DNA from: Candidatus Saganbacteria bacterium
Lineage (GTDB): Bacteria; Margulisbacteria; WOR-1; XYC2-FULL-46-14; XYC2-FULL-37-10
Assembly: GCA_016223245.1 (NCBI GenBank)
Contig: JACRPL010000003.1
Location: forward strand, 74,078 to 138,077
Length of the DNA: 64,000 nt
Direction: 5' to 3'
Shown in pieces: positions 27,966 to 33,890 of this stretch. Both the position numbers and the translations under genes were made by a program. Within the stretch, counting starts at the first letter, position 1; every line of letters begins with the position of its first letter. The notes under the pieces were generated by a model, which did no database searches, was not told the origin of the DNA, and worked only from the letters and a program-made list of their open reading frames with translations.

Positions 27966-28187
27966 ATGAACATCCAAATCCAAAATCTCGTAGTTAAACT
28001 TCATGGCCCCGACAGGGTTGCTATAATGCATTCCCTTACAGACGAATTGTTGGGAGAGGAAGGGGTCCGCAGGGCGATCAACTATAATGTATATTACGGC
28101 GATCCGGAAGCGAAACAAGTTGCTATTGAGTTGGCCTCAAAAATGAAAGTTCTTACTCCACAAGATATCGAATCGCTCTCCGCATAA
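27966..28187 (+). CDS. small hypothetical protein
   Basis: 73 codons from MNIQIQNLVV; no recognisable family; overlaps the larC 3' end. Confidence 0.25.
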   Translation: MNIQIQNLVVKLHGPDRVAIMHSLTDELLGEEGVRRAINYNVYYGDPEAKQVAIELASKMKVLTPQDIESLSA

Positions 28188-29328
28188 CTTCTCTATAAGC
28201 TTTCTTTATAGGGATATGATGTTTATTCGCTAATTTCTTATAGTCTTCGTATTCAGGCGCGATAGTCATGATCTTCTTTCCAAGTGTTCCGATCTTAACG
28301 GCGGCTTTCCCATATTTTGTGTTGATCTGTTTAAAATGGCGGCCAAGTTTTTCTCTTTGGACTAAGAATGTTCGAACGCCAAACGAGGTAGTCGTTTCAA
28401 AAATCGTCTTTAGGATGATATCCTCCAATTCGATAGGGCATAATACAGTTAGTTTGACCGCCGCCCTTTCTTTTTTCATCCGAATATCTTCAAAATATGC
28501 ATCGTATGCCCCAGCTTTCAATAAGGATGTGATCGTATTATCGAAAAGTTTCGGAGCAATATCGTCTATGTTTGTTTCGATCATTAAAACCATATCTTTT
28601 TTGGTTTCTAATTCTTTTTCACCGATAATTACCCTTAAGAAATTCGGCTGAACTTTAAGGTCATATCCGCCGGCTCCGAATCCGGTCTTTTCAACTTCTA
28701 TCCTTGGCAATGGTCCAAAACTTTTCGCGAGAGTTGCAATGATCGCGGCTCCCGTTGGCGTTGCGAGCTCTTTTTTTATTCCCGAATCATAGATCGGTAT
28801 CCCTTTTAGAAGTTCAACCGTCGCAGGCCCCGGAATTGGGATCGTTCCATGAGCGCATTTTGTGGTTCCCGATCCAACATTTATTGGAGAGCAAAAAACT
28901 TCTTCGATACCAAGAAAGGCTAGGCAAGTAACGGAACCCACGATATCTATTATCGCGTCAATAGCGCCGACTTCATGGAAGTGGATTTCATTTATCCCGC
29001 ATTTATGGACTTTGGCTTCCGCTTTTGCAAGATTGTAAAATATTTTCTTGCTTAAAACTTTTATTTTTTTCGACAGATGGCTATTATCTATTATTTTATT
29101 GATATCTTTAAGCGACCGATGGTTTTTTTCTTTTATGGTTTTTACCTCGATATGAGTAGCATTAATTCTGTTGTTTGTTTTTCTGGTAACGAGTAACGAG
29201 TAATGCGTAATGCGAAGCTTTGCTAGTTCTTTTTTTAGATGTTCAATCGGAACTCCGGCATTTACAAGCGATCCTAAGATCATGTTGCCGGAGATACCCG
29301 ATGCGCAGTCAAAATAAGCGGTTTTCAT
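28153..29328 (-). CDS. larC: nickel-pincer cofactor biosynthesis protein LarC (DUF111)
   Basis: 391 aa; MKTAYFDCASGISGNMILGSLVNAGVP N-terminus typical of LarC. Confidence 0.8.
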   Translation of the reverse strand: MKTAYFDCASGISGNMILGSLVNAGVPIEHLKKELAKLRITHYSLLVTRKTNNRINATHIEVKTIKEKNHRSLKDINKIIDNSHLSKKIKVLSKKIFYNLAKAEAKVHKCGINEIHFHEVGAIDAIIDIVGSVTCLAFLGIEEVFCSPINVGSGTTKCAHGTIPIPGPATVELLKGIPIYDSGIKKELATPTGAAIIATLAKSFGPLPRIEVEKTGFGAGGYDLKVQPNFLRVIIGEKELETKKDMVLMIETNIDDIAPKLFDNTITSLLKAGAYDAYFEDIRMKKERAAVKLTVLCPIELEDIILKTIFETTTSFGVRTFLVQREKLGRHFKQINTKYGKAAVKIGTLGKKIMTIAPEYEDYKKLANKHHIPIKKAYREVMRRAIRYLVE

Positions 29329-30074
29329 TTGCGATTAACAATTGCGTTCGCCATAACGGCGGCGCCGAAGCCGTTGTCGATATTTACCGCGGCAACTCCG
29401 GGTGCGCAGGAGTTTAGCATCGTTAAAAGTGCCGACAATCCTTTGAAACTTGCTCCATAGCCAACCGATGTCGGGACGGCGATAATTGGCGCAGAAATTA
29501 ATCCTCCAATTACAGATGGCAATGCGCCTTCCATTCCGGCGACAGCGATAATAACAGAGGCTCTTTTTAAGATTTTAATATTTTTCAACAAACGATGTAT
29601 ACCCGCAACTCCAACGTCATGTAGCTTTTCGACTTTAAGCCCAAGAAATTCTGCCGTAATTGCGGCTTCTTCGGAAACGGGTATGTCGGATGTGCCTGCG
29701 GTTACAATAAGTACAGGGTTTCTATGCCTGCCTGCCGATCCGTCCTCCGTAGCAGTGCTACTGCGGAGGATGGAAGCTTTAGCGAAGGCAGGTTTCTTTG
29801 TTTCTATGTCGCTTTGTTTGAAAGTAACGATTCGTGCGACTTTGTGATATTTCGCTTTTGGAAGAATTTCTTTTATTGCCTTGAATGCCGTTTTATCAGC
29901 CCGGGTTGCTAATACATCATGGCCATAATGCGCGATGCGCGATGCGATATGCGCTATTTGATCGGGAGTTTTTCCTTGGCAGTAGATCACTTCAGGGAAT
30001 CCTTTTCGTTTTATCCTATGATGGTCTATTTTTGCGAACCCAAGGTCTTCGTAGTGTGGTTTATTCTTGCTCAC
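29325..30074 (-). CDS. larB: nickel-pincer cofactor biosynthesis protein LarB (PurE-like carboxylase)
   Basis: 249 aa; PurE-like C-terminal domain (VIIAVAGMEGALPSVIGG); ATGA overlap with larC. Confidence 0.8.
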   Translation of the reverse strand: MSKNKPHYEDLGFAKIDHHRIKRKGFPEVIYCQGKTPDQIAHIASRIAHYGHDVLATRADKTAFKAIKEILPKAKYHKVARIVTFKQSDIETKKPAFAKASILRSSTATEDGSAGRHRNPVLIVTAGTSDIPVSEEAAITAEFLGLKVEKLHDVGVAGIHRLLKNIKILKRASVIIAVAGMEGALPSVIGGLISAPIIAVPTSVGYGASFKGLSALLTMLNSCAPGVAAVNIDNGFGAAVMANAIVNRK

Positions 30075-30143
30075 ATTTACTATTATATCGTGAAATTTAC
30101 TGATTGCACAGGTAGGGTTAGCTGTTTAGATGGGATTATATAA

Positions 30144-30662
30144 TCAGCCTATATTTTCTGTCGTCCGTGGTACTGGTTTGATCTCATGCATCGAAGCTAG
30201 CCAGCTAAACCCTGCGGAGAATTTTGTAGCCGCGTCATACCATGCTTTTGCAAAGTCTCCCTTGACTAGAGCATGGCTTAGGTCAACGCCGGTCAAATTT
30301 GAAAATCTTGCATCCAAATCAGTGAAAGATGCATCCCCGAAAGTGCTAAATCTTAAGCTTGCGCCTGATAACAGAGGGAAGTATGTTCCACAACTAAATG
30401 AATGTGTATCTTCAAATCTTTTGGGCCCGATAACAGATCCGCTAAAGTCAAGGTATAATACAGAATGGGCCGCGGCAAATCCAGCTAATCTTCCGACTTC
30501 GCCATGGGTGAGCGCGTGTTTGAGGTTCAGTCCGGATTCGTTGATCTTTCTTGCGACATCTCCAAGCGATCTATGGTTCGGCCCCAAAACGCTGGATGCG
30601 ATCCCGATCGGCGTCCTCCAAATATTTTTTTGAACTTGAAATTTTGTCCCATCAATTGCCAT
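30144..30662 (-). CDS. pentapeptide-repeat protein
   Basis: 172 aa; tandem A(D/N)LxG-type pentapeptide repeats in the C-terminal half; chosen over the overlapping plus-strand ORF. Confidence 0.45.
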   Translation of the reverse strand: MAIDGTKFQVQKNIWRTPIGIASSVLGPNHRSLGDVARKINESGLNLKHALTHGEVGRLAGFAAAHSVLYLDFSGSVIGPKRFEDTHSFSCGTYFPLLSGASLRFSTFGDASFTDLDARFSNLTGVDLSHALVKGDFAKAWYDAATKFSAGFSWLASMHEIKPVPRTTENIG

Positions 30663-30918
30663 GATATTTTCCTCCTGAAGAATTATTTTTTACTCTATAC
30701 GCCTACTTCGGGAAGTAATATCAGAAATTTCACTTATTAAAAAATACTTTTAGAAATTTTTTGTGCCCCGTAAATAGACATAAAAATATCGTGATGGTAT
30801 ACTTTATCAATCGACCGGTTGCGGACTTCGACGAGCTCAGTCGAGTCGTTGCGCGGCTTGAAACGTATATCGCAATACGTTTCCCACTTCCCAACCCATT
30901 GACGCTTATCGATTTTAT

Positions 30919-30991
30919 GGAGGAGTGGCCGAGTGGTTGAAGGCGAACGCCTCGCCACCGCTACGTTCCGCAGACGGAACTAGCGGGGTTC
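30919..30991 (+). pseudogene. truncated/degenerate tRNA-Ser-like copy (acceptor 5' half, D-arm, variable arm; anticodon stem unpaired, T-arm 3' half missing)
   Basis: GGAGGAGTGGCCGAGTGGTTGAAGGCG... parallels the intact tRNA-Ser at 31283 up to CGGGGTTC then diverges. Confidence 0.45.
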
Positions 30992-31034
30992 CGCCAAAGG
31001 CGGAAAAAGCACTAATACTTAGAAGAATAATCGA

Positions 31035-31280
31035 ATGTTTTATATATACATATTAGAAAACGATGTCAATAAGCATTACATCGGATATACTTCGAAAGAT
31101 CCCATTGAAAGATTAGAGGAGCACAATCGATCAAAGGGAAATTGGACAAGATATAAAGGCCCTTGGAAATTAGTTTATCAGGAAAGCTTTTTAACTAAAG
31201 AAGAAGCTTCTAGAAGAGAAAAGCAGATAAAAAATTATAAAGGCGGTCAAGCCTTTAAAAAATTAGTTATTAATATTTAG
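31035..31280 (+). CDS. small GIY-YIG nuclease-domain protein
   Basis: 81 aa; FYIYILENDVNKHYIGYT...RLEEHN...EEASRREKQIK matches the GIY-YIG (UPF0213-like) pattern; lies between the tRNA fragment and the intact tRNA. Confidence 0.7.
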   Translation: MFYIYILENDVNKHYIGYTSKDPIERLEEHNRSKGNWTRYKGPWKLVYQESFLTKEEASRREKQIKNYKGGQAFKKLVINI

Positions 31281-31282
31281 TT

Positions 31283-31372
31283 GGAGGGATGGCTGAGCGG
31301 TTGAAAGCGGTCGCCTCGAAAGCGACTATACTGGAAACAGTATCGGGGGTTCGAATCCTCCTCCCTCCGCCA
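31283..31372 (+). tRNA. tRNA-Ser (anticodon CGA), 90 nt with encoded CCA
   Basis: Folded by eye: 7-bp acceptor GGAGGGA/TCCCTCC, D-arm GCT-GAGCGGTTGAA-AGC, anticodon arm GTCGC-CTCGAAA-GCGAC, long variable arm, T-arm GGGGG-TTCGAAT-CCTCC, GCCA. Confidence 0.85.
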
Positions 31373-31704
31373 GTTGAGAAATGTCTTTGTTGGCTCGCCC
31401 GAGGCTAAGGCTCGCCAACCGTTTTTCATAGAAATTTCAAGCCGTTTTGAATTCAGTAAGGCCAAGAGAAAACTTTTTGAATTTTTATTGATTAAGACAA
31501 CCGACATACCCCGAGCGCAAGCTCGAGGGAATATGAGTCTTTTTAGCCCCCTGATATAATTGGAGACAGGTTAGGAAGCGAACATTTTCCGACGGTTTTT
31601 GAAACTAAGCAATTTTTTGAGAGTTTTCCGAGGTTCTAATCTCTAATTGCTGGTTTTTTCTTTCCCATCACCTCCATTCCCCCAATTTTGGAAACAGTTA
31701 ATCC

Positions 31705-32244
31705 TTATGCCGCCGTAGCGGCCGGTTCCAAGGGCGGAGGAGCAGCGAATATTTTCTTGAGATTGTATGCCATGTAAGTTAGCAAAGATTGGGCATGTGT
31801 CTTAAGCTCGCCCCAGTAGCGCGATCTTTTCAGGCGATAACTGCGCTTGCCAACGGCAAAAGGCACCTCGACCATACAGCGCATGCTCCGGGCGTAAACA
31901 TAATCATCGTTGCTTTCTTTAAAAGAGACATTGAGGAAAAAACGGAAAAGAATGTAGAGATTGATGAGTTCTTCAAGCTGGTAGTCGGAATTAAGCTGCA
32001 TCGCCTCTTTAAGAAAAAGTATCTTAAACATCAAAACCGGATCGAAAGCACTCTGGCCATTCTTACTATAGCAATTCTTCGCTTCCTCACGGATGAACGA
32101 CCAATCGAAATCGACCAGTTTAACCAGGATATGAGACGCATAATTGTTCTTGACGTTTTTGGCAAATTCTGCCTCGAAGAGATTCCCGCCGAAACCTTTT
32201 AACTCTTTGAACATAAGACACCTCCATAGAAATGATACAACCAT
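31705..32244 (-). pseudogene. internally deleted transposase (IS5/IS1182 family: N-terminal DUF772-like segment joined to C-terminal ...LLTYMAYNLKKI tail)
   Basis: 179 aa, far shorter than typical transposases of this family; C-terminal AYNLKK motif typical of IS1182/IS5 transposases. Confidence 0.55.
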
Positions 32245-32750: not shown

Positions 32751-33890
32751 ATGGAACTCTTCCAAGATCAAGGAAAACCAGAAGACCAGCCTCTTGCATA
32801 CCGCATGGCACCTCGAACAGTTGATGAAATATCAGGCCAAGAAGAAATATTGGGGCAGGGGAAATTATTAAGGCGGTTAATCGAAGCCGACAAGATCACA
32901 TCTATTATTCTTTATGGACCACCCGGAGTCGGAAAAACTGTAATTGCTCGCGTTATTGCCAATACAACCAAAGGCCACTTTGAGTGGCTTAATGCCGCAA
33001 CGGCTTCAGTTGACGATATTCGAACTGCCAGCCTCCAGGCCAAACAGCGAAGAAAATTAAATGGATTAAAGACTATTCTTTTCCTGGATGAAATCCATCG
33101 CTTCAATAAGCTTCAGCAGGATTCATTATTGCCCGATGTTGAAGAGGGCAATCTTATCTTGATCGGCGCAACAACAGAAAATCCTTTCTTTTATGTGAAT
33201 TCGGCGTTGGTTTCGAGGTCGCAAATATTTGAATTGAAACCTTTATCGACCGAAAACCTAAAAATAGTAATTAATTCGGCTATTAAAGACGCAGATCGTG
33301 GATATGGCAAATTAAAAATCGATATAAATAGTGAAGCACTTGAACATTTATCAAAACTGTCGGATGGAGACGCAAGGCGAGCGCTCTCCGCCCTGGAATT
33401 GGCCGTCCTTTCAACGCAAAAAGATAAGAGTGGGACAATAAATATTGATCTGAAGGTGGCCGAAGAATCGATCCAAAAGAAAAAAGTTGTCTACGACAAA
33501 AAAGGCGACCAACATTACGACACTATTTCCGCTTTTATAAAATCTATGCGCGGTTCAGATCCAGACGCAGCGCTATATTATCTTGCGAAAATGATACATG
33601 CCGGTGAAGATCCAAGGTTTATCGCAAGGCGCATTGTTATTTGTGCCGCCGAAGATGTCGGGAATGCTGATCCTTTGGCATTGGTTATTTCAAACGCCGC
33701 TATGCAGGTAGCTGAGTTTGTAGGACTTCCGGAAGCAAGAATTCCATTGGCCCAAGCTACAACCTATGTCTCAACGGCGCCAAAAAGCAACGCGGCTTAT
33801 ATGGGAATAAATGAAGCTTTAAAAAAAGTTGAGAATGAAGTTACTCAAGCCGTTCCCGAGCATCTAAAAAATTATACGAGAAAGAACTAA
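32751..33890 (+). CDS. rarA: replication-associated recombination protein A (AAA+ ATPase RarA/MgsA)
   Basis: 379 aa; LAYRMAPRTVDEISGQ, GPPGVGKT Walker A, C-terminal MgsA helical domain. Confidence 0.8.
   Translation: MELFQDQGKPEDQPLAYRMAPRTVDEISGQEEILGQGKLLRRLIEADKITSIILYGPPGVGKTVIARVIANTTKGHFEWLNAATASVDDIRTASLQAKQRRKLNGLKTILFLDEIHRFNKLQQDSLLPDVEEGNLILIGATTENPFFYVNSALVSRSQIFELKPLSTENLKIVINSAIKDADRGYGKLKIDINSEALEHLSKLSDGDARRALSALELAVLSTQKDKSGTINIDLKVAEESIQKKKVVYDKKGDQHYDTISAFIKSMRGSDPDAALYYLAKMIHAGEDPRFIARRIVICAAEDVGNADPLALVISNAAMQVAEFVGLPEARIPLAQATTYVSTAPKSNAAYMGINEALKKVENEVTQAVPEHLKNYTRKN

Follow-up and report, generated by a model that had tools for sequence, protein, structure and literature searches.

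The locus at 30919-31372 of the window (the whole 64,000-nucleotide stretch of DNA that was analysed) is best explained as belonging to a widespread type of selfish cassette that resides in tRNA genes and brings a replacement tRNA with it; the probability of this explanation was put at about 0.55. The family-wide pattern points to an apparently undescribed selfish element, and no published description of the GIY-YIG/hairpin/tRNA arrangement was found in the full-text literature (subscription-only papers lie outside it).

According to ARAGORN, the window contains a single tRNA gene, tRNA-Ser(CGA) at 31283-31372 on the + strand. The Rfam tRNA model also recognized it (56.6 bits, E=3e-11), and, judging from its sequence, it is the functional copy, borne beside the nuclease gene. 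The latter, at 31035-31280 (+), encodes a minimal GIY-YIG nuclease of 81 aa, of the prokaryotic Slx1-like/UPF0213 type, and its stop codon (31280) is separated from the tRNA start (31283) by 2 nt. Both features had been described correctly in the first-pass annotation, which had further stated that the 73 nt at 30919-30991 parallel the tRNA-Ser gene. This was found to be true of 30919-30954 (+), where positions 1-36 of a tRNA-Ser(CGA) gene have been displaced; the stretch is identical to 31283-31318 at 29 of 36 positions and stops after the second anticodon base. The next best non-self match to tRNA positions 1-36 on either strand of the window was 21/36, and the chance expectation for a 29/36 match in the window was 7e-5. 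The seven differences include a compensatory one in the D-stem (pair 12/24, T-A to C-G), which suggests that the fragment was derived from a separately functional gene.

The rest of the 73 nt, 30955-30991, had been taken for the variable arm and the first T-stem strand. Instead, a GC-rich double hairpin of 51 nt (30955-31005, +; designated H) begins there, inserted between anticodon bases 2 and 3. The former assignment was abandoned in favour of this conserved element, which dozens of homologous loci have at the same position. After H, tRNA homology was found to resume at position 37. The stretch 31006-31034 (+), which ends at the ATG of the ORF, is a decayed continuation of the disrupted tRNA copy from position 37 to about 64; its local alignment begins precisely at tRNA position 37, spans positions 37-64 and scores 23 versus 13.1 +/- 2.6 in shuffles (p ~0.005). 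The anticodon stem of the fragment is indeed unpaired, as had been noticed earlier, because the hairpin insert parts its strands, which moreover have diverged. The proposal that a GIY-YIG cassette had inserted at a tRNA-Ser gene and duplicated its 5' part is supported by the comparative data as to the association with insertion and duplication, but the geometry differs, since the copy comprises decayed positions 1 to ~64 with a conserved hairpin at the anticodon.

Calling of tRNAs on the fragment had been suggested as a check. ARAGORN made no call on 30919-31010 at default or relaxed thresholds, and Rfam gave no hit at E<=10, even with 3' truncation allowed and the fragment set at the end of the searched stretch; thus, no functional tRNA of another identity was recognized there. 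The 64-kb window holds one cassette and one H only. It contains no second H, no second tRNA fragment (blastn), no orphan T-arm, 3' half or other tRNA-like 3' end, and no right-hand H with the tRNA 3' half of the cassette. The further GIY-YIG paralogues for which a search had been advised are absent from the window as well (tblastn). On the cassette explanation, the locus of the window is partly eroded, and of the split tRNA-Ser(CGA) gene only the left half survives (30919-30954, followed by H and then by 31006-31034). About 115 nt 5' of the tRNA fragment, a consensus scan revealed a candidate sigma-70-type promoter (TAGACA-17-TATACT, TG-extended; 30775-30803, +; 10/12 matches), which, as a consensus match only, could drive the whole fragment-hairpin-ORF-tRNA unit.

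The neighbouring genes were also compared. The pentapeptide-repeat protein encoded to the left had no homologue but itself. The LarB relatives in L208-L211 (69-78% identity) stand in the order RarA - AP endonuclease - LarB - LarC, unlike in the window, with no tRNA or cassette nearby, and are too distant to inform on the empty site. No syntenic relative, syntenic empty site or empty/filled allele pair was found.

The arrangement recurs far beyond the window. A set of 81 loci, comprising 80 homologues (one genome per species) and the window, spans at least ten phyla; the family was found in CPR/Patescibacteria, Saganbacteria, Omnitrophota, Planctomycetota, Bacteroidota, Ignavibacteria, Nitrospirota and Thermotogota, with a patchy distribution and high cross-phylum identity. 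In 62/81 loci, the ORF stop has a tRNA start on the same strand at a distance of -76 to +30 nt, and nearly all the others are truncated at a contig end or precede a hairpin-bearing tRNA copy that was missed by ARAGORN. The ORF stop is often located inside the tRNA (-15 for Ser, -25 for Glu, -38 for Tyr and -10 for Pro). In almost all of the 81 loci, a hairpin-disrupted copy of the same tRNA adjoins the ORF. The upstream region aligned with the tRNA at a local score >=30 in 35/61 loci, versus 0/61 reverse-complement controls. The upstream copy usually starts at position 1, is often identical to the tRNA over 35/35 or 36/36 positions and has its break at 14/15 or 35/36, where the conserved hairpin is located. 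Throughout the family, tRNA homology returns after H in a locus-specific manner. Annotation tools miss hairpin-bearing pseudo-tRNAs and 5' fragments, and the tRNA-Pro copies of Bacteroidota were miscalled as genes.

In the best-preserved relatives, L039, L006 and L045, a resident tRNA gene is interrupted within a loop by the cassette, which has a complete replacement tRNA inside and is bounded by two sister hairpin copies. In L039, the acceptor and anticodon stems are perfectly paired between the upstream 36 nt (GGAAGCG...CCAGT) and the 3' part that lies downstream (ACTGG...CGCTTCC), and these outer halves differ from the enclosed intact tRNA at 10/36 positions. In L006, the outer acceptor stem is GGAGAGG/CCTCTCC and the inner one is GGAAGGG/CCCTTCC. 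In both loci, the pieces that flank the H-ORF-tRNA-H block can be joined into a single former tRNA gene, distinct from the intact one.

Across phyla, the type of tRNA, the break position and the hairpin subtype go with the protein clade. The tRNA partners of the clades are Ser, Tyr, Glu, Pro, Lys and Gln; for example, the partner is Ser(GGA) in CPR, Glu in Omnitrophota and Planctomycetes, and Pro in Bacteroidota and Thermotogota. Turnover is indicated by several features. Tandem hairpin-tRNA-ORF arrays were found in L022, L047, L048 and L070, and ORF-less relics that keep the final ORF codons were found in L128 ('GGQAFKKIIKEQ*') and L125. Many loci are terminated by contig ends. Gene order and break position differ among loci, which fits recombination and singles out no one mechanism. 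To the right of H, L004 and probably the window have sequence of the inner tRNA type, and L039 has that of the outer type; therefore, no usable rule can be derived from it.

These observations may be combined as follows. The anatomy of the cassette, its recurrence, the linkage of protein clade with hairpin and tRNA type, and the split genes of L039 and L006 were seen directly in the sequences, whereas the nuclease activity, target, mobility and repair pathway are putative. The cassette consists of a minimal Slx1-like GIY-YIG gene, a complete tRNA gene fused to it at the tRNA 5' end, and H just upstream of the ATG. In intact relatives, H and a short tRNA remnant precede the ORF and the intact tRNA, and another short remnant and a second H follow. 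This block interrupts a tRNA gene of its own kind in the anticodon loop or D-loop, so that both halves of the resident gene lie outside the insert. A structure-selective nuclease would break tRNA-gene DNA at a loop-forming position, and recombination with a copy that bears the cassette would repair the break, the duplicated tRNA sequences serving as portable homology arms; H, the ORF and the tRNA would thereby be copied in. H interrupts the displaced tRNA copy, and the host would stay viable through the cassette's own tRNA. H may also stabilize the ORF transcript, which the tRNA promoter would drive. Repeat recombination would then yield tandem arrays, permuted orders and ORF-less relics. The explanation has weak points. 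No pair of empty and filled alleles was found, and the 81-aa protein lacks a DNA-binding domain. The intact tRNA of the cassette would itself be at risk from an enzyme directed at tRNA genes, which amounts to an immunity problem. Furthermore, H is mostly ORF-free in metagenomes, no viral relatives were found, and the right half is absent in the window.

A bolder form of this explanation, that the family represents a new class of mobile element built from a shape-reading Slx1-like nuclease, a 35-nt double hairpin and a replacement tRNA gene, is possible but rather doubtful. Here, the nuclease would recognize hairpin or cloverleaf loops, not a long sequence, and the 35-nt double hairpin would be copied into the cut loop in a homing-like manner. 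The replacement tRNA would let the element destroy an essential tRNA gene while the host survives, and tRNA genes, acting both as target and as portable homology arms, would allow it to cross phyla. If true, this would also explain the thousands of solo hairpins, the nested hairpins and the short flanking repeats.

The hairpin deserves separate consideration. The H of the window is laid out as CCACCGCTA[nested hairpin CGTTCCGCAGACGGAAC]TAGCGGGG-TTCCGCCAAAGGCGGAA. In hairpin 1, CCGCTA (30958-63) pairs with TAGCGG (30981-86), and GTTCCG-CAGA-CGGAAC (30965-80) is nested in its loop; hairpin 2 is TTCCGCC-AAA-GGCGGAA (30989-31005). The predicted DNA fold of 30919-31034 has an energy of -27.9 kcal/mol (z=-4.84). 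Rfam contained no known RNA family for the hairpin or leader of the window and of ten related loci. The motif CCACCGC...GCGGGG-TYCCGCC-AAAG-GCGGRA is shared with homologous loci, where it occupies the same tRNA position; the nearest sequence is the H of L005. Within 130 nt 5' of the 81 ATGs, 113 hairpin matches were found, versus 26 elsewhere in ~410 kb.

It is unlikely, on balance, that H is the real mobile entity, as in a REP/RAYT-like system, although several of its properties speak for this. A MITE-like H would insert in hairpin loops and at G|AAA sites and would be mobilized in trans by the single-copy GIY-YIG protein; the tRNA duplications would be a side effect, with H tolerated in redundant tRNA copies only, and H would accumulate beside the nuclease gene because the enzyme prefers acting in cis. 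In agreement with this, an exact-pattern scan of metagenome contigs revealed H as a dispersed repeat at at least 120 loci, and among the matches listed, 90 of 124 copies had no GIY-YIG within 1.2 kb; therefore, H may be a separate element that colonizes redundant tRNA copies. Its length is tight (62/113 copies are exactly 35 nt), its flanks are biased (G precedes in 61%, and A follows), and direct repeats of >=6 nt accompany 23% of the copies versus 2.6% in controls. Some copies are themselves nested within the loops of other hairpins, and the H of the window contains a nested hairpin. H stands beside every ORF of the family, the pseudo-tRNA copies of L018, L038 and L056 carry two or three H insertions, and the protein resembles structure-specific nucleases. 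However, such a system would leave unexplained the constant fusion of the ORF to the tRNA 5' end and the presence of an intact tRNA inside a split one. Independent insertions would be expected, whereas the two H copies of one locus are sisters (94-100% identical, versus a mean of 78% between loci), and the H insertions in tRNA lack a target duplication. REP/REPIN elements, the subject of PMC3116915 and PMC2817692, are dispersed short GC-rich palindromes that flank a gene for a small nuclease, usually present as a single copy. The RAYT enzymes belong to the HUH/Y1 transposases (IS200/IS605 type), whereas the window protein is a GIY-YIG and not a Y1 enzyme, and REPs are not known in tRNA loops or in linkage to tRNA duplication. 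The locus is not a member of the REP/RAYT class; the feature of dispersed hairpins beside a gene is seen in metagenomes, with one H in the window. Mobilization of H in trans is compatible with the selfish cassette and may be part of it.

The protein itself bears on a further explanation. The ORF matched Pfam GIY-YIG (PF01541) over residues 1-68 with E=6.8e-16 and 58.8 bits (cut-off 22.6). Both tyrosines of GIY/YIG and the core Arg and Glu are present, and Y5, Y15, G17, R26, H30, N31, E50, R61 and E62 are invariant in 16 homologues. Profile matches were obtained with PDB 1ZG2 (6e-13), PDB 1YWL (2e-8) and SLX1 chains (3e-5 to 2e-3), and with I-TevI only at 5e-3. By these sequence comparisons, the protein is a stand-alone GIY-YIG domain of the Slx1-like/UPF0213 branch with no extra domains and groups with structure-specific Slx1-type nucleases. 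The best matches among solved structures, BH0048 (PDB 1ZG2) and EF2693 (PDB 1YWL), have the same domain and size, and proteins of their type are described as stand-alone minimal GIY-YIG domains of unknown role (PMC1564403). The window subfamily is set apart from them by a distinctive C-terminal motif, REKQIKxYKGGxAFKKLI, and by its tRNA-gene linkage and hairpin association, neither of which appears for BH0048/EF2693-type proteins in the survey of PMC1564403. The annotation of a Candidatus Saganbacteria MAG includes an identical protein, the closest relative belongs to Nitrospiraceae (65% identity), and the family comprises 3666 50%-identity clusters at E<=1e-3. Identical-protein look-ups for P0016, P0007 and the window protein returned the same context each time and no second insertion site. 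Phage origin was considered and rejected, as the protein had no relatives in IMG/VR viral contigs, where accordingly no transfer vector was seen, and no match in PHROGs. Membership in a defence system was also rejected, the PADLOC match (PDC-S14, E=0.0034, 14 bits) being only marginal.

A cellular enzyme of tRNA/RNA metabolism or repair, co-transcribed with the tRNA, could also be encoded here, in which case the pseudo-tRNA and hairpin would be an mRNA leader, stabilizer or regulator and not an insertion scar. Such a host function was judged quite improbable. The ORF is intact, with core residues conserved over thousands of clusters, and shares its strand with the tRNA, from which it is only a few nt away, so that co-transcription is likely; the hairpin keeps a fairly constant distance of 10-30 nt to the ATG. 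Prokaryotic Slx1-like proteins have also been tied to RNA metabolism, and a fusion of an Slx1-like domain with a TrmH-type tRNA methyltransferase has been noted (PMC1564403). The lack of phage-family matches and the marginal PADLOC score (E=0.003) agree with a cellular role. On the other hand, the patchy phylum distribution with high cross-phylum identity, the shift of tRNA partner with protein clade, the tandem arrays, the ORF-less relics and the split resident tRNA genes are all at odds with it. In addition, no NCBIfam family matches or names the protein, and the closest relatives of the neighbouring genes, distant as they are, lack the cassette.

Passive decay, in which a plain tandem tRNA-Ser duplication or the remnant of another element (e.g., a neighbouring IS) received the ORF and hairpin in its spacer by chance, is highly improbable and already largely refuted: the transposase remnant 330 nt 3' of the intact tRNA (31705-32244), the clearly decayed fragment with just 81% identity and the absence of the right-hand cassette part would suit it, but dozens of unrelated genomes share the three-part arrangement, in combination with different tRNAs, so that chance co-location is no explanation, and there is no integrase, and the 5' part is duplicated instead of the 3' att-type repeat of integrative elements (PMC9897764).

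The selfish cassette may be compared with several known systems. In integrase-type islands and prophages, a tRNA gene serves as landing site, its function is kept by element-borne tRNA sequence, and a partial copy is left (PMC9897764). Such islands (attL/attR) measure 9-23 kb or more, have a tyrosine integrase and duplicate a short 3' segment, whereas the cassette insert is ~0.35-0.6 kb long, lacks an integrase, displaces the 5' part and holds a complete tRNA; complete cassette copies also have a displaced 3' part. No integrase-like ORF was found between 29000 and 33900 in the window (ORF list and Pfam), and the repeat is the 5' part, so that the locus is not an integrase-type genomic island. 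The difference from integrase-mediated 3' duplications that had been pointed out in the first-pass annotation was thereby borne out.

T4-like phages carry free-standing GIY-YIG homing endonuclease genes (Seg), among them SegB in the T4 tRNA gene cluster, and these are thought to spread by double-strand break and recombinational copying with co-conversion of the flanks. The cassette resembles them in having a small free-standing GIY-YIG gene between or beside conserved genes, tRNA genes included. Seg and I-TevI enzymes possess a C-terminal sequence-specific DNA-binding domain, whereas the window protein is a bare catalytic domain of the Slx1/UPF0213 branch that covers all 81 aa. As far as its sequence indicates, it does not have the architecture of a homing endonuclease of the I-TevI/Seg type (a catalytic plus a sequence-specific DNA-binding domain). 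As for homing in the functional sense, with occupied and empty alleles of one site and cleavage of the empty one, no syntenic empty site was found, and the split resident tRNA genes of L039 and L006 would be indirect support. Unlike Seg genes, the cassette is chromosomal, has no relatives found in viral contigs, duplicates and splits its target gene and has a conserved hairpin. Group I introns occur in the anticodon loops of bacterial tRNAs, sometimes with a homing endonuclease gene, and thus share the insertion site. However, no Rfam intron family matched 30500-31800 at E<=10, so that the locus is without a group I ribozyme match, and rescue would be by a second complete tRNA copy and not by splicing.

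An organellar case is also similar. A mobile GIY-YIG ORF in the mitochondrial atp6 gene of Allomyces, as well as mitochondrial double-hairpin elements, were reportedly described by Paquin, Laforest and Lang (1994, 2000; PMC3787672 cites the paper of 2000). The nuclease ORF is said to enter this essential gene with a partial replacement copy, the displaced part becoming a pseudo-fragment, and the same genomes reportedly also contain apparently mobile GC-rich double-hairpin repeats. That case concerns an organelle and a protein-coding target, whereas the cassette is found in bacterial tRNA genes with a whole replacement gene, has its hairpin exactly at the D- or anticodon-loop break and recurs across many bacterial phyla.

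If the selfish cassette is confirmed, it would reveal a widespread and overlooked exploitation of tRNA genes by selfish DNA, in which the mechanism is nuclease-driven replacement and not site-specific integration. Fragments of the 5' parts of tRNA genes and pseudo-tRNAs with hairpins would then be accounted for as a class, and an enzyme would be linked to the GC-rich hairpin repeat that is dispersed in uncultivated bacteria. A nuclease of just 81 aa that recognizes shape and has a defined target could be of practical interest. For the minimal bacterial GIY-YIG proteins of the Slx1/UPF0213 type, confirmation would provide both a biological context and a testable substrate.

The only tRNA gene of the 64-kb window, tRNA-Ser(CGA), was located by ARAGORN at 31283-31372 on the plus strand (Rfam, 56.6 bits). 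It is preceded on the same strand by an 81-aa ORF (31035-31280; Pfam GIY-YIG, E=6.8e-16), which ends 2 nt before the tRNA start; this arrangement was already described in the first-pass annotation. Positions 1-36 of the tRNA were compared with both strands of the window. The best match, 29/36 identical, was found at 30919-30954 (+), the runner-up reached 21/36, and 7e-5 matches as good as the best were expected by chance in the window on both strands. Considering this match and the ORF and tRNA calls, it could be concluded that the core observation was real and no product of chance. The upstream fragment was not called a tRNA by ARAGORN, even with relaxed thresholds, or by Rfam with truncation allowed, so that the refuting case named in the first-pass annotation, a functional tRNA with another identity, was not seen.

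The anatomy of the fragment had to be corrected. The tRNA parallel had been extended to 73 nt by reading 30955-30991 as a variable-arm hairpin and T-stem strand. It was confirmed for 30919-30954, whereas relatives showed 30955-30991 to be the start of a conserved 51-nt GC-rich double hairpin, designated H (30955-31005, +). The sequence of H, CCACCGCTA[CGTTCCGCAGACGGAAC]TAGCGGGG-TTCCGCCAAAGGCGGAA, lies between anticodon bases 2 and 3 of the tRNA copy, and the loop of its first hairpin holds a small extra nested hairpin. The DNA fold of 30919-31034 reproduced exactly the H helices (z=-4.84), and this was the only H-type hairpin in the window. After H, the tRNA homology restarts exactly at position 37 (positions 37-64 at 31006-31034, +; p about 0.005 versus shuffles), and the ATG follows immediately. 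The idea of a 73-nt 5' fragment that ends in the T-loop was rejected; the upstream element is a decayed tRNA copy spanning positions 1 to about 64, split by H. Over positions 1-36, seven differences separate this copy from the intact tRNA, among them a compensatory change of the D-stem pair 12/24 from T-A to C-G, a hint that the copy descended from a tRNA-Ser(CGA) gene that was functional in its own right. A perfect 9-bp inverted repeat, GAAACGTAT-ATCGCA-ATACGTTTC (30860-30883, +), located 36 nt upstream of the fragment, is AT-rich and differs in type from H.

A profile of the 81-aa protein was searched against one genome per species (GTDB), yielding 254 relatives; 80 loci were fetched and, with the window, 81 were compared. 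In 62/81 loci, a same-strand tRNA gene started -76 to +30 nt from the ORF stop codon, which was often inside the tRNA, with an offset characteristic of the tRNA type. Nearly all the other loci were cut by a contig end or had at this place a hairpin-bearing tRNA copy without an ARAGORN call. The partners were mostly tRNA-Ser (all anticodons), but also Tyr, Glu, Pro, Lys and Gln. The ATG was preceded by a copy of this partner tRNA, usually from position 1 (alignment score at least 30 in 35/61 loci versus 0/61 reverse-complement controls), which was often identical to the adjoining tRNA over 35/35 or 36/36 positions. This copy breaks at 14/15 (D-loop) or 35/36 (anticodon loop), where a hairpin with the consensus CCACCGCC-N4-GGCGGGG-YYCCGCC-N4-GGCGGRA is found, and beyond it locus-specific tRNA sequence restarts. 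In the 130 nt preceding each of the 81 ATGs, there were 113 hairpin matches in total, versus 26 elsewhere in about 410 kb. The window locus belongs to a large family with a stereotyped arrangement.

In the Glu, Pro and Lys classes, a single CCCCGCC-N4-GGCGGGG hairpin stands in place of a whole tRNA arm. Copies with the D-arm replaced in this way were called tRNA-Pro by ARAGORN in Bacteroidota and Thermotogota loci (L047, 52-128 and 397-473; L048, 2878-2954 and 3237-3313; L064; L072; L080), and such copies are likely counted as real tRNA genes in genome annotations.

Many loci contain, after the intact tRNA, a second H and a tRNA 3' part. Such loci follow the general order A-H-b'-ORF-[intact tRNA]-a'-H-B, in which A and B stand for the two parts of a tRNA and b' and a' for short leftovers of them. 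In locus L039, the acceptor and anticodon stems that outer A (GGAAGCG...CCAGT) forms with outer B (ACTGG...CGCTTCC) are perfectly paired, and 10/36 positions differ between these parts and the intact inner tRNA; in L006, the outer acceptor stem is GGAGAGG/CCTCTCC versus GGAAGGG/CCCTTCC in the inner tRNA. Because the outer pieces pair mutually and differ from the inner tRNA, they are the halves of one former, independently functional tRNA gene, which was split by an insert with an intact tRNA that has the same anticodon but another sequence. The two H copies within a locus were 94-100% identical versus a mean of 78% between loci, which indicates sister copies rather than independent insertions. 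The natural variable arm GCCGCCGAAAGGCGGC of the intact tRNA-Ser(TGA) of L039 (3237-3326) shares its sequence type with the H hairpin units, and variable arms of tRNA-Ser may be evolutionarily related to H.

A variant order, tRNA-ORF-(A-H-B), was found in, e.g., L030, L005 and L205, tandem arrays in L022, L047, L048 and L070, and ORF-less relics retained the code for the last residues of the protein. In two such relics, L128 (about 2870-2950) and L125 (about 930-1040), a tRNA 5' copy, H and about 30 nt encoding the C-terminal nuclease motif (GGQAFKKIIKEQ*) precede the intact tRNA. The L128 deletion fuses the D-loop sequence GTGGTCAA to an identical string inside the GGQA codons (GGTGGTCAAGCG), which is consistent with ORF loss by deletion between short repeats.

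Only the left two-thirds of the full layout are represented in the window; no right-hand H or tRNA 3' half was found in the 64 kb, and the locus is an eroded copy of a cassette consisting of H, the ORF and a complete tRNA gene. Farther downstream, 330 nt from the tRNA, a 179-aa ORF (31705-32244, minus strand) with only DUF772 and DDE_Tnp_1_6/DDE_Tnp_1 transposase domains is what is left of a truncated IS, which may account for the loss of the right-hand part. The neighbouring genes (28153-30662 and 32751-33890) encode LarC, LarB, RarA and a pentapeptide-repeat protein without any homologue but itself in 5.8 billion proteins. In the closest long relative, L210, the order is RarA - AP endonuclease 2 - LarB - LarC on one strand, without a tRNA; therefore, the LarB-RarA region was rearranged in the Saganbacteria genome. 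No empty/occupied allele pair was found among relatives of the flanking genes.

The window protein is 100% identical to an NCBI entry from a Saganbacteria MAG. Profile search against solved structures matched the protein best to the UPF0213 proteins BH0048 (1ZG2, 6e-13) and EF2693 (1YWL, 2e-8), followed by eukaryotic SLX1 structure-specific endonucleases; the I-TevI match was marginal (5e-3). A 2006 superfamily survey described prokaryotic Slx1-like proteins as minimal stand-alone domains possibly linked to RNA metabolism and did not mention tRNA-gene linkage (PMC1564403). The GIY-YIG core residues were invariant among aligned homologues, and the C-terminal motif REKQIKxYKGGxAFKKLI was distinctive of the subfamily. 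Exhaustive search gave 3666 clusters (50% identity) at E<=1e-3 and 165 at 1e-10. No match was found among NCBIfam or PHROG families, PADLOC returned nothing convincing, and no relatives were found in viral contigs. In a rough neighbour-joining tree, clades tracked, across the host phyla, the type of tRNA, the site of its break and the hairpin subtype, and the closest relative of the window protein (65% identity) came from a Nitrospiraceae MAG, which together suggest that the whole unit spread horizontally. Gene callers lengthened three homologues (P0002, P0005, P0008) at the N-terminus by G-, R-, A- and P-rich stretches of 20-45 residues, which appear to be read-through of upstream hairpin and tRNA-fragment DNA rather than real protein; many family members of 100-130 aa from the exhaustive search may be similarly over-called.

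The nuclease gene was always accompanied by H, a hairpin for which no Rfam family was found. An exact-pattern scan of metagenome contigs detected H at no fewer than 120 loci. Among the matches listed (124 copies), a GIY-YIG ORF started at most 150 nt downstream of 14 and lay within 1.2 kb of 9 more; 90 had none within 1.2 kb, and 11 were at contig ends, where the neighbourhood is undecidable. Among the copies listed, H was exactly 35 nt long in 62/113, was preceded by G in 61% and followed by A, and was sometimes nested within another hairpin's loop; direct repeats of 6 nt or more, often within short tandem-repeat-like sequence, surrounded 23% of copies versus 2.6% of controls. Given this tight length, biased flanks, direct repeats and loop nesting, H resembles, in its behaviour, a small element of a mobile or REP-like kind with a preference for loops. 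Solo 35-nt double hairpins (L082-L201; e.g., L199, L181, L182, L112) often lie in AT-rich tandem-repeat-like sequence with a 7-12-nt period that is identical on both sides, as in L199 (AAATCAGTAATC) and L181 (ATTTTGGATTTT); these repeats could be target duplications from repeated insertion. Nesting is seen in L195 (TCCGCCAG[H]CTGGCGGA) and L190.

With a probability of roughly 0.55, the family represents a selfish cassette residing in tRNA genes and combining a structure-selective mini-nuclease, a hairpin module and a replacement tRNA. As the most economical mechanism, we propose that the putative nuclease would break a tRNA gene at a loop-forming position and that recombinational repair off a cassette-bearing copy would follow, for which the duplicated tRNA sequence would provide homology arms; the host would survive on the cassette's own tRNA, and inter-repeat recombination would yield arrays, permutations and relics. 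The first-pass observation was confirmed in part, and its interpretation, a GIY-YIG cassette inserted at a tRNA gene, was supported in part and considerably sharpened by the family comparison.

The main rival, unlikely by itself and possibly complementary to the cassette reading, is that the nuclease mobilises H, the tRNA duplicates being merely places that tolerate it. This would resemble REP/RAYT systems, which also unite a dispersed hairpin repeat and a nuclease gene but use an enzyme class other than GIY-YIG. A cellular role for the protein in tRNA or RNA metabolism, rather improbable, would suit the conserved ORF and its tight co-orientation with the tRNA; the patchy distribution, split tRNA genes, tandem arrays and ORF-less relics do not fit it. 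Passive decay after an unrelated duplication, contradicted by the recurrence of the arrangement, is very improbable.

The proposed selfish cassette resembles several known systems in part. Free-standing Seg-type GIY-YIG genes of phages likewise follow the logic of a nuclease gene that spreads through breakage and repair, but their enzymes differ from the cassette nuclease in having a DNA-binding domain. Allomyces mitochondria reportedly contain a mobile GIY-YIG ORF with partial gene replacement, as well as double-hairpin elements; the nuclease ORF with replacement gene sequence and the hairpin repeats are alike, whereas that system is organellar and its target protein-coding. Integrase-borne islands also use a tRNA gene as a landing site (PMC9897764), while the cassette is much smaller, has the opposite polarity and lacks an integrase. 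Full-text searches of openly accessible papers found no account of an arrangement in which GIY-YIG genes are joined to tRNA genes and accompanied by hairpin-disrupted tRNA copies. It is only tentatively that a distinct class of shape-targeting mobile element can be proposed. The eroded locus of the window led to an arrangement that is widespread and apparently undescribed, yet known in kind as nuclease-associated gene invasion with replacement.
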